Shown here: positions 9,500 through 12,400 of the stretch, one piece after another
Numbering within the stretch: the first letter of the stretch is position 1
How the letters are laid out: the number at the start of each line of letters is the position of its first letter
Source: Escherichia coli
GTDB lineage: Bacteria > Pseudomonadota > Gammaproteobacteria > Enterobacterales > Enterobacteriaceae
DNA: 64,000 nucleotides
Direction: 5' to 3' (one strand)
Assembly (NCBI RefSeq): GCF_048403405.1
Contig: NZ_CP183129.1
Position numbers: made by a program

Positions 9500-12400
9500 G
9501 GTTATGCGCTGATGCCTGATGCGGCGCGGGCGCGTCTTATCATGCCTGGAAGTCTGCGCCCGAATCGTAGGCCGCCTCCGCTATATTAACTGGCATTGGC
9601 AAATTACTCGTCACTACCTTTATTCATGTTTTTTTGGTCTTCATCCGGATAATGTTTTTTTAGATATTCCAGGACGTTTTTATTGACCTTGTGTTGCGTA
9701 TACACCCACCCTTTCCAGTAATCAGGCTGGTCCAGGTAAACTTCTGGCGGAATGGTGAAATCAGAAAGCGTTAACCATTCGGCTAACAGATCGGGGTTTC
9801 GTTTCTGGATTAACTGCAACAGCATAATCAGTGACATAGCTGAGGCAGGAGCCGTACTATCGCCACTTAAATATTTCCACACTGTTGACCGGTTCGAACG
9901 AAAAAGGATCGGTAGCAATGCCCGGTCCAGATTCATTTCATTAAAAATCTTCTCAAATTCATTCATTTAAATTTTCCTGCCTGGCGTAAACCTCTTAAAA
10001 ATTGAGATTTATCAAAGAAACGCATTTTAGCACACATCAGGAACCGGTTCACGTTTAGTCCAGAAACAGAATTTATTTCGCTTATCAAAACAAGTCTTTA
10101 CTCTTTTTTACATTGAAAGAGCACAAAATGATTTTCGATTTTATTTATATAAGAAACATTTTTTGTTTCTTATTGGTTGTGTTTACGCTTACACCAGACA
10201 AAAATGCGCTTTACATCACACAAATGGCGGCGTAGATTTCGATTAAATTGCAACGCAGTTTATTTCTTAAAACAATATTATTTGTTTCTTATAGAAACAT
10301 TAATGCGACTTATTTTGAACAAGAGAAAATGAATGAAAACTGTAAACGTAGCTTTACTGGCACTCATAATTTCAGCAACATCCAGCCCTGTTGTTTTAGC
10401 TGGTGATACCATTGAAGCGGCGGCAACAGAGCTTTCAGCCATTAACTCTGGCATGTCGCAATCGGAGATTGAGCAGAAGATTACCCGCTTTTTAGAACGC
10501 ACAGACAACAGCCCCGCTGCGTATACCTATTTGACTGAACATCACTACATCCCTTCTGAAACACCTGATACCACTCAGACTCCCACTGTCCAGACAGATC
10601 CTGACGCAGGACAAAAAACCGTTGCCGCTACAGGTGATGTACAGACAACCGCCCGTTATCAGAGCATGATCAACGCCCGACAGTCTGCGGTAACTGATGC
10701 CCAGCAAACGCAAATTACAGAGCAACAGGCGCAGATCGTAGCCACACAAAAAACGCTCGCCGCGACTGGAGATACGCAAAATACTGCGCATTATCAGGAG
10801 ATGATTAATGCCAGACTGGCGGCTCAAAATGAGGCTAATCAGCGCACTACCACGGAACAAGGGCAGAAAATGAATGCACTGACAACCGATGTGGCAGCAC
10901 AACAGCAAAAAGAAAGGGCTCAATACGATAAACAAATGCAAAGTCTGGCGCAGAAGTCTGTCCAGGCACATGAGCAAATTGAAAGTCTGAGACAAGATTC
11001 CGCACAAACGCAGCAACAGTTAACCAACACGCAAAAACGGGTCGCAGATAACAGCCAACAAATTAACACGCTCAATAACCATTTCGATTCTCTGAAAAAC
11101 GAAGTTGAGGACAATCGTAAAGAAGCCAATGCGGGAACTGCATCTGCCATCGCTATCGCCTCACAACCACAGGTGAAAACCGGTGACTTGATGATGGTGT
11201 CAGCGGGAGCGGGAACGTACAACGGTGAATCTGCGGTGTCTGTAGGAACATCTTTTAATGCCGGAACGCATACGGTACTTAAAGCAGGTATTTCTGCGGA
11301 TACACAATCTGATTTCGGTGCGGGTGTCGGCGTGGGATATTCGTTCTAATTTTAACAGCAATTTCTTATTCGCAATTTTCCGTACATTATTTAAGGTTAA
11401 CAATGATGAATAGCTCCATTAAATCGTTTTCCCTGCTGGCGGTTATATTACTGGCTGGCTGTAGTTCACCCACTTCCCGCATCGCAGATTGCCAGGCGCA
11501 GGGCGTCAGCCATGACACCTGTTATCTCGCAGAACAACAGCGTCAGGCGGCTATTTTAAGTGCATCAGAAGCGCAGGCATTTAAAAATGCAGAAGCCGCA
11601 CAACATGCCCAGGCCGCTAAAAAATCTATTTATAAAGGATTTGGCATGACCTTTAGAATGAGCAGTAAGAACTTTGCTTATCTCAATGATTCATTATGTG
11701 CAATTGATGAAGACAATAAAGATGCCACTGTTTATCAGTCAGGTCTTTATAACGTCATTGTTTATCACCACACGGGAAAAGTCGCCTTAATGAAGGAAGG
11801 TCAGTTTGTGGGTTATTTAAAATGAAAGAGCAAAGGAAAATCCCCCTGACGCATATTATGATTATCGGTGCGTTTATTTTTGCCTTCTTGCAAGTGGTGT
11901 TATTAGCCTCCCTGGTTCACGCTGTGAATGTTAACAACGAAATCCAGGAAGGCTTATTTCAGTCGGGGCGCATTATGGTAGAAAGTTTGCAGCATATTCT
12001 TTCGGTGCAAACGGGGATTAACTGATTTTCACCCCGCCCGATGATGACAGCAGCCGGAGAGATTTTCGATAATCGGGCAGTCGGCGCTGTCATCGCCAGG
12101 GCAGGCATTCGCCAGCGCCAACAGCTGGTTGCGCATGGATTGCAGTTCTTCGATATGTCGCTCGATCTCCGCCACTTTCTCCAGGGTGCGACGTTTGACG
12201 TCGGCACTGTGACGCTGCGGATCGTTAAACAGATTCACCAGTTCGCCGCTCTCTTCCAGGTTAAAGCCCACCTGGCGCGCCTGGCGCAGTAAGGTCAGTT
12301 CGTTGAGATGCTGCTGCGTGTAGGTTCGATAACCATTTTCGCTGCGCATCGGCGGCGTCACCAGCCCCTTCTCTTCATAGAAGCGAATGGCTTTGCTGGT

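Follow-up and report, generated by a model that had tools for sequence, protein, structure and literature searches.

Oriented AGAAAC sites between z0640 and the gmrA adhesin operon of Escherichia coli as candidate operators of a small XRE-type protein

A 64-kb stretch of Escherichia coli DNA (contig NZ_CP183129.1; hereafter the window, within which all positions are given) contains a divergent gene pair whose intergenic spacer carries a series of short AGAAAC sites. On the minus strand, z0640 (ECs_0549 in Sakai; 9604-9966) encodes a 120-amino-acid XRE-type helix-turn-helix (HTH) protein, the candidate regulator, and on the plus strand gmrA (z0639, ECs_0548; 10333-11349), the first gene of an adhesin operon, encodes a protein of 338 amino acids. 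The spacer between these two open reading frames (ORFs) is 366 bp long (9967-10332) and has a G+C content of 31%. We propose that the AGAAAC sites are operators of z0640 that would govern the adhesin cassette, a reading to which, judging from comparative sequence analysis, we give a probability of about 0.5.

The gene names are those of O-island 29 (OI-29) of EDL933, which carries z0638, z0639 and z0640 (PMC5826968); the corresponding genes of O157:H7 Sakai are ECs_0546, ECs_0548 and ECs_0549. The primer used to delete z0640 matches 9967-10004 in reverse complement, and the two gmrA deletion arms exactly flank the coding sequence (CDS) named 'YadA family autotransporter adhesin' in RefSeq. The HTH gene described in an initial annotation of this DNA is therefore z0640, and its YadA-like operon begins with gmrA.

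That annotation had placed two perfect inverted repeats and an extra AGAAACA half-site between the two genes, and direct reading together with a repeat search bears out all three, each inside the 366-bp spacer. Dyad 1 (10151-10171) reads AAGAAACA-TTTTT-TGTTTCTT and extends to perfect 10-nt arms, ATAAGAAACA (10149-10158) and TGTTTCTTAT (10164-10173); in terms of its core it is GAAAC-N7-GTTTC. Dyad 2 (10283-10299), in the predicted 5' untranslated region of the adhesin gene, is TGTTTCT-TAT-AGAAACA, i.e. GTTTC-N5-GAAAC. The extra AGAAACA (10062-10068) is the core of site B (10053-10079, plus strand; GTTTA-N5-GAAAC-N7-ATTTC), where degenerate partners surround it and leave one mismatch to each of the two dyad patterns. 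A fourth conserved copy, absent from the initial annotation, is AAGAAAC at 10015-10021, the core of site A (10007-10021, plus strand; ATTTA-N5-GAAAC), which overlaps the predicted z0640 start. A further position, site D (10250-10254, plus strand), just 3' of the predicted adhesin start, reads GCAAC in E. coli. Counting both strands, the window contains eight copies of AGAAACA, five of them inside a 238-bp segment of the spacer. When the spacer was shuffled with its dinucleotide composition preserved, two perfect inverted repeats with a common half-site arose in 11 of 5000 shuffles, and a 7-mer containing two or more G/C attained five copies in 13 of 5000; the clustering of palindromes and half-sites thus exceeds chance, since such counts are reproduced only 0.2-0.3% of the time. 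A cruder version of this test, without exclusion of A/T runs, was uninformative because such runs dominate it, and it was replaced by words with at least two G/C. Two matches lie elsewhere in the window: GAGAC-N7-GTTTC at 51789-51805, with one mismatch, was taken as chance, and a perfect GTTTC-N5-GAAAC at 60671-60685, far from the island in G+C-rich, coding-looking sequence, is probably chance as well.

The arrangement of a z0640 homologue divergent from a YadA-anchor gene holds in each close relative covered by the analysis and recurs in nine lineages outside Escherichia, with identities as low as 32%; the spacer measures approximately 300-410 bp in Escherichia, Pseudocitrobacter and eight further lineages. 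The locus diversity was drawn from metagenome and assembly look-ups, and a scan of genome contigs gave only four loci. The homologue is 72% identical in Pseudocitrobacter (L003-L005; spacer ~370 bp), 61-68% in the enterobacterial assemblies L010 and L012, and 48%, 44%, 44% and 32% in the distant lineages L017, L018, L020 and L032/L033, respectively; for the divergent neighbour in L006 and L008, no Pfam match is on record. Still more distant relatives of z0640 occur in mobile-element-like contexts without an adhesin gene.

In the pooled spacers of eight lineages, GAAAC ranks first among pentamers by enrichment, with 49 copies observed against 8.0 expected from a first-order model (z 14.5) and at least three copies in each lineage. 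For positional comparison, ten spacers from at least six lineages were aligned and positions were mapped relative to an invariant block. GAAAC is present at the site A position (10017-10021) in eight of nine lineages, and at site B (10063-10067) it is kept in five (Escherichia, Pseudocitrobacter, L006, L008 and L010), always 46 bp from site A. It recurs in the dyad-1 region and at +41, +63 and +85 after the invariant block. The site D position holds GAAAC in E. whittamii and most other genera, lying at anchor +40 to +42 in L016, L003-5, L008, L010 and L012. The last copy, the right arm of dyad 2, stands 38-41 nt 5' of the adhesin ATG in all nine lineages, with wholly different flanks. Same-orientation copies up to 60 bp apart are spaced by 22 bp (seven cases), 44 bp (three), 46 bp (four) or 50 bp (one) in the eight lineages. 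The adhesin ATG follows the invariant promoter block after 104-105 nt in L010 and L017 and after 122-126 nt elsewhere; the shorter distance corresponds to the loss of one 22-bp unit, and the spacing between the last GAAAC and the ATG is unchanged.

A logo built from 58 GAAAC copies has TTTC at -9 to -6 (C at -6 in 55%, against 16% in the background), A at -1 and a weaker TTTC at +13 to +16. From this logo the consensus site is (G/A)TTTC-N5-GAAAC, identical to the form of dyad 2. As far as the alignments indicate, the conserved unit consists of an oriented AGAAAC and, 10 bp upstream of it, a weaker TTTC in the opposite sense; it mostly recurs at 22-bp intervals. Exact dyads are rare across genera and exact palindromes are largely confined to Escherichia; outside this genus, most sites consist of a single oriented GAAAC whose opposed half is degenerate. 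Dyad 1 looks like the place where two such sites, offset by 22 bp, adjoin with their strong halves facing each other. Its GTTTC is kept in most genera with the partner usually on the right, as in L006, L008, L010 and L012 (GTTTC-N5-GAAAy), and in E. coli this right-hand partner has decayed to GGTTG. The two dyads themselves stand, but they are not equivalent palindromes; an oriented AGAAAC with a degenerate opposed TTTC is what persists.

Within Escherichia, we compared 11 alleles that are 88-100% identical. In dyad 1 the AAGAAAC arm is invariant and the GTTTCT arm intact in 10 of the 11, and five of the seven spacer positions vary; in dyad 2 the right arm is invariant and, at the left arm, six alleles have GTTTC and five have GTTGC. 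The conserved arms and free spacer of a dyad-symmetric operator are, on these alignments, found within Escherichia and only in part across genera.

Repeats of this kind could also be relics of a local duplication of approximately 22 bp in AT-rich acquired DNA, without any sequence-specific function, their conservation being due to promoter elements and common ancestry. The two dyad regions are indeed tied together by a direct repeat of 34 nt with 79% identity (10140-10173 and 10259-10292), the D-E-F units of L008 resemble tandem 22-bp repeats, two lineages are short of one unit, and a single perfect palindrome arises in 923 of 5000 shuffles, i.e. about one in five. Relics without function would, however, leave unexplained why GAAAC is fixed in place across genera while its flanks diverge, with the copy before the ATG present in every lineage, why it is enriched (49 copies against 8 expected), and why 10 of 11 Escherichia alleles share unchanged dyad-1 arms around a variable spacer. 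We regard this explanation as quite unlikely.

An alternative is that dyad 2, like the other GAAAC copies 3' of the adhesin promoter, acts in the mRNA leader, as a hairpin or as a protein or small-RNA site affecting translation or stability, and not as a DNA operator. Indeed, dyad 2 and sites D-F fall within the predicted 5' untranslated region, and the last GAAAC is fixed relative to the start codon, not to the promoter. Short hairpins also beat their shuffles (-5.0 kcal/mol, z -3.9; -9.4 kcal/mol, z -4.7), but these z-scores merely restate the palindromy, and the whole predicted leader folds like shuffled sequence (z -0.58). The T-to-G change that turns the left arm of dyad 2 into GTTGC in five alleles is not compensated in the right arm, and the predicted transcripts do not include dyad 1, site A or site B. 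Furthermore, there is no Rfam match within 9967-10332 and no terminator-like site was found in the spacer. A structured RNA element or terminator was rejected on the uncompensated change, these two negative results and the leader fold, and a role of the sites in the leader seems to us highly improbable.

As to the candidate regulator, the view that the neighbouring 120-amino-acid protein is an HTH protein was borne out by structure prediction. An AlphaFold model of z0640, made with an alignment of 24 sequences including distant members, reached a predicted local distance difference test (pLDDT) score of 90.8 and a predicted template modelling (pTM) score of 0.78; a first AlphaFold2 model from 10 close homologues had a pLDDT of 54 and was discarded. 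The leading Foldseek matches of the model are all XRE repressors or antitoxins, each weak individually (E at least 0.2). The z0640 family is small (21 clusters at the 90% identity level; 24 representatives at the 50% level, E up to 1e-3) and has no Pfam or NCBIfam model. Among the 24 members, one or two reach the Pfam families MqsA (3e-5), Xre-like-HTH (7e-5) and HTH_3 (4e-4). z0640 itself has no significant match in NCBIfam or PHROGs, and a profile search of the PDB gave only E values of approximately 0.7-1.5, to Xre and HigA2 antitoxins. The predicted structure supports a lambda-repressor-like fold of five helices, of which helices 2-3 form the HTH, an assignment in which the structure comparison and the Pfam matches of the family agree. 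The predicted recognition helix spans residues ~25-34, NRSTVWKYLS.

That the sites are read by the regulator of the cassette itself is argued best by their co-variation with this helix, although few lineages bear on it. Where GAAAC is kept, in eight lineages, the predicted recognition helix always contains N-R-S-T-x-x-K. In the P0027 lineage, where the helix is PRNTIFNYL, the 308-bp spacer contains no GAAAC; instead there are five copies of RGAACA, a count reached in 2 of 2000 shuffles. A perfect AAGAACA-N5-TGTTCTT lies at -175 in this lineage, dyad 1 of E. coli being at -184 to -160, and one of its alleles (L032) has a same-orientation GAACA pair 22 bp apart; the second (L033) keeps the half-sites and not the perfect dyad. 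GAAAC is also lost in L020, whose helix is HRSTSHKWL. Two palindromes of the L020 spacer, TTGATAATTATCAA and TTATCATGATAA, were considered as a changed operator and rejected, because the former aligns with a TTGA-N6-TCAA box found in all lineages and the latter looks Fur-box-like.

Several points weigh against z0640 as the reader of these sites. A symmetric dimer on a palindrome appears too simple a model for what are mostly single oriented GAAAC copies, both transcription starts are predictions, and the 34-nt direct repeat means that local duplication could account for part of the repetition. Taken alone, z0640 has MqsA_antitoxin as its best Pfam match at a non-significant E of 0.12. The co-variation comes down to one clearly shifted lineage, represented by two alleles, plus the loss of the motif in L020. 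Finally, the motif is unchanged in lineages whose regulators are only 44-48% identical (L017, L018), and a conserved host factor would predict the same.

Such a host factor, binding the GAAAC sites in place of z0640, would account for a motif that is stable despite large divergence of the regulator. It would also suit the response of gmrA to temperature, pH, osmolarity and host contact, which is typical of global host control, and the spacer does hold conserved boxes of host-factor type (GTAAA-N5-GTAAA and one resembling TTGAT-N4-ATCAA). GAAAC is a half-site variant in OmpR sites. However, the spacings between GAAAC pairs (22, 44, 46 and 50 bp) lack the 10-11 bp tandem phasing required by regulators of the OmpR/PhoB type; no same-orientation pair at 10-11 bp exists among the spacers of the eight lineages, and a tandem site of this family is ruled out by the spacing. 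The motif was matched to no known enterobacterial regulator and within the window is confined to the spacer, and a host factor would not explain why GAACA accompanies an altered recognition helix in the P0027 lineage's own regulator. We therefore consider it an unlikely reader of the sites.

The candidate operators can be placed against two predicted promoters. For the adhesin operon, a sigma-70 promoter is predicted at 10210-10238 on the plus strand (TTTACA-17 nt-TAGATT), with a start near 10245; it is the only sigma-70-like match of a consensus scan in 9900-10400 and sits in the best conserved block across genera, GCTTTACaTCACA...GGCGTAnnTT. For z0640, we infer an extended -10 at 10024-10032 on the minus strand (TGCTAAAAT), a promoter type that the consensus scan does not cover, with a start near 10017, inside site A. 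This element is kept as TGnTAnnAT in all lineages of alignment A3 (ATTTTAgCA, ATTTTACCA, ATTATATCA). On these predictions, site A would cover the z0640 start and site B would lie approximately 45 bp upstream of it; the dyad-1 pair would precede the adhesin start by approximately 70-100 bp and dyad 1 itself by approximately 70-95 bp, with site D at about +5 and dyad 2 at +39 to +53 in the leader.

If z0640 binds there, each site would comprise about 15 bp, (G/A)TTTC-N5-GAAAC, with the GAAAC half read specifically and the opposed half loosely. Sites 22 bp apart, or two helical turns, would place neighbouring dimers on the same face of the DNA, so that they could bind cooperatively. Occupancy of site A (10007-10021) would cover the predicted z0640 start and lead to negative autoregulation, and the pair in the dyad-1 region (10143-10179), site D and dyad 2 would bracket the adhesin promoter and may repress or tune the operon. 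The initial annotation had envisaged a dimer of the adjacent HTH protein acting on the two palindromes to control both promoters. As far as computation reaches, control by the neighbour is supported by the HTH fold, the divergent pairing, the conserved sites at both predicted promoters and the co-variation, but the picture of a dimer on two palindromes is too simple, since the conserved unit is oriented and exact palindromes are largely an Escherichia feature.

Published clone and deletion data constrain the direction of regulation. A clone that starts at position 10014 of the window, and hence lacks z0640, restores the phenotype of an island deletion, and deletion of z0640 does not reproduce the gmrA phenotype (PMC5826968). 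z0638, gmrA and z0640 all go down 3 h after contact with HeLa cells (PMC5826968), a joint decrease that fits a shared control region. Temperature, pH, osmolarity and contact with host cells all exert tight control over the gmrA operon (PMC5826968); given the response to the first three, host factors must contribute. In the same study, z0640, the sole island protein with an HTH fold, is given no function, and no operator or promoter is described in the spacer (PMC5826968).

The closest parallel for the mode of action may be repressor C of phage P2, an XRE-type HTH dimer of approximately 100 amino acids. Its operator at Pe consists of short oriented repeats 22 bp apart from centre to centre, i.e. 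two helical turns; within a dimer, one subunit recognises the repeat and its mate contacts the DNA less specifically, and dimers bind cooperatively across the promoter (PMC2995052). z0640 is likewise a small XRE-type protein, and the spacer has oriented AGAAAC repeats that recur at 22 bp with a degenerate opposed half; the structure of P2 C (2xcj) is among the Foldseek matches of z0640, at rank 9 (E=1.2). In contrast to this, no significant sequence relationship connects the two proteins (Phage_CI_repr at E=0.02 in one family member, no meaningful PHROG match), the z0640 locus is chromosomal, non-phage and paired with an adhesin operon, two of the E. coli sites are true palindromes, and their operator role is predicted. 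The comparison is thus one of possible mode of action, not of family membership. By structure prediction, the z0640 system seems closest to XRE autoregulators of the Aca and antitoxin types. Like Aca1 and Aca2, the C proteins of restriction-modification systems and the antitoxins HigA2 and MqsA, it combines a protein of similar size with a site over its own predicted start, 15-bp dyads whose half-site centres are approximately 10 bp apart, and several adjacent sites. Unlike these, z0640 has no anti-CRISPR, toxin or restriction-modification partner, its partner being a YadA-anchor operon, and conservation of its half-sites is strongly asymmetric. With the tandem sites of OmpR and CpxR the GAAAC sites share AT-rich pentamer half-sites ending in AC, but they lack the 10-11 bp phasing and often have an inverted partner. 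The z0640-spacer pair is a new, uncharacterised case of a familiar gene switch.

Other elements share the spacer. A perfect match to the CpxR consensus GTAAA-N5-GTAAA (as quoted in PMC9603713) lies at 10097-10111 on the minus strand, between the two predicted promoters, and is separate from the GAAAC sites. Eight to ten of its ten positions are kept in most lineages, including L020, which has lost GAAAC; GTAAA is the next non-overlapping enriched pentamer of the spacers (34 copies against 14 expected). The only other perfect match in the window is at 40734-40748, in the glsA-copA intergenic region (0.04 expected). At 10002-10015, slightly downstream of the start predicted for z0640, TTGAGATTTATCAA differs at one position from the FNR-type consensus, TTGAT-N4-ATCAA; this box is kept as TTGA-N6-TCAA in all lineages and is perfect in L008 and L020. 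Directly after the predicted adhesin -10, TCGATTAAATT (10239-10249) resembles the high-affinity H-NS motif TCGATAAATT, and with the whole spacer at 31% G+C, silencing of the acquired island by H-NS is plausible.

The product of gmrA has an N-terminal signal-peptide-like sequence, a coiled coil and a C-terminal YadA anchor (Pfam YadA_anchor, residues 279-338, E=6e-12). Downstream in the operon follow z0638 (11403-11825, plus strand), encoding a 140-amino-acid lipoprotein, and an overlapping membrane-like ORF of 67 amino acids (11822-12025, plus strand); this pair also follows the adhesin gene in Pseudocitrobacter, L010 and others. Across cassettes the length of the adhesin passenger region varies strongly, from 338 to 615 amino acids. 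In some E. coli alleles (L002, 3705-5487, and L023), the CDS that RefSeq names 'YadA-like family protein' starts more than 700 bp 3' of the conserved start and signal peptide; in L002 the annotated start is at 4438 and the signal-peptide ATG at ~3705, so that the N-terminus looks mis-annotated. L002 also has an additional gene of 1224 bp 5' of cueR.

The gene order around the island is fetB-fetA-qmcA-ybbJ, the four-gene insert, cueR and a type I secretion system with an adhesin of 6925 amino acids. The cassette of regulator, adhesin, lipoprotein and small ORF is inserted between ybbJ and cueR in E. coli, between qmcA and fetA in Pseudocitrobacter, between qmcA and ybbN elsewhere, and at a ribE-side locus in L020 and L032; no integrase was found near it. 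Between ybbJ and the island, 9400-9580 holds a cluster of palindromic units of the repetitive extragenic palindrome/bacterial interspersed mosaic element (REP/BIME) type, with a match to the REP-derived Rfam family naRNA4 at 9469-9546 (71.9 bits). Across cueR, 12433-36548 encodes the type I secretion system (HlyD-type adaptor, ATP-binding cassette permease/ATPase) and the repetitive 6925-amino-acid adhesin of the O157 OI-28 region, so that cueR stands between two adhesin systems unrelated to each other.

Of 5426 complete E. coli genomes, 1413 contain the spacer, in each case on the chromosome and in single copy; about one quarter of them thus carry the island, including O157:H7, O55:H7 and many extraintestinal pathogens. 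gmrA is reported to influence flagellar expression and to be switched on and off during host-cell contact (PMC5826968), and no promoter, operator or regulator for it has been described in the literature. We believe that the analysis provides a map of candidate sites together with a candidate regulator for this adhesin operon. Furthermore, GAAAC and GAACA would form a natural specificity pair for the study of how small XRE proteins read asymmetric sites.

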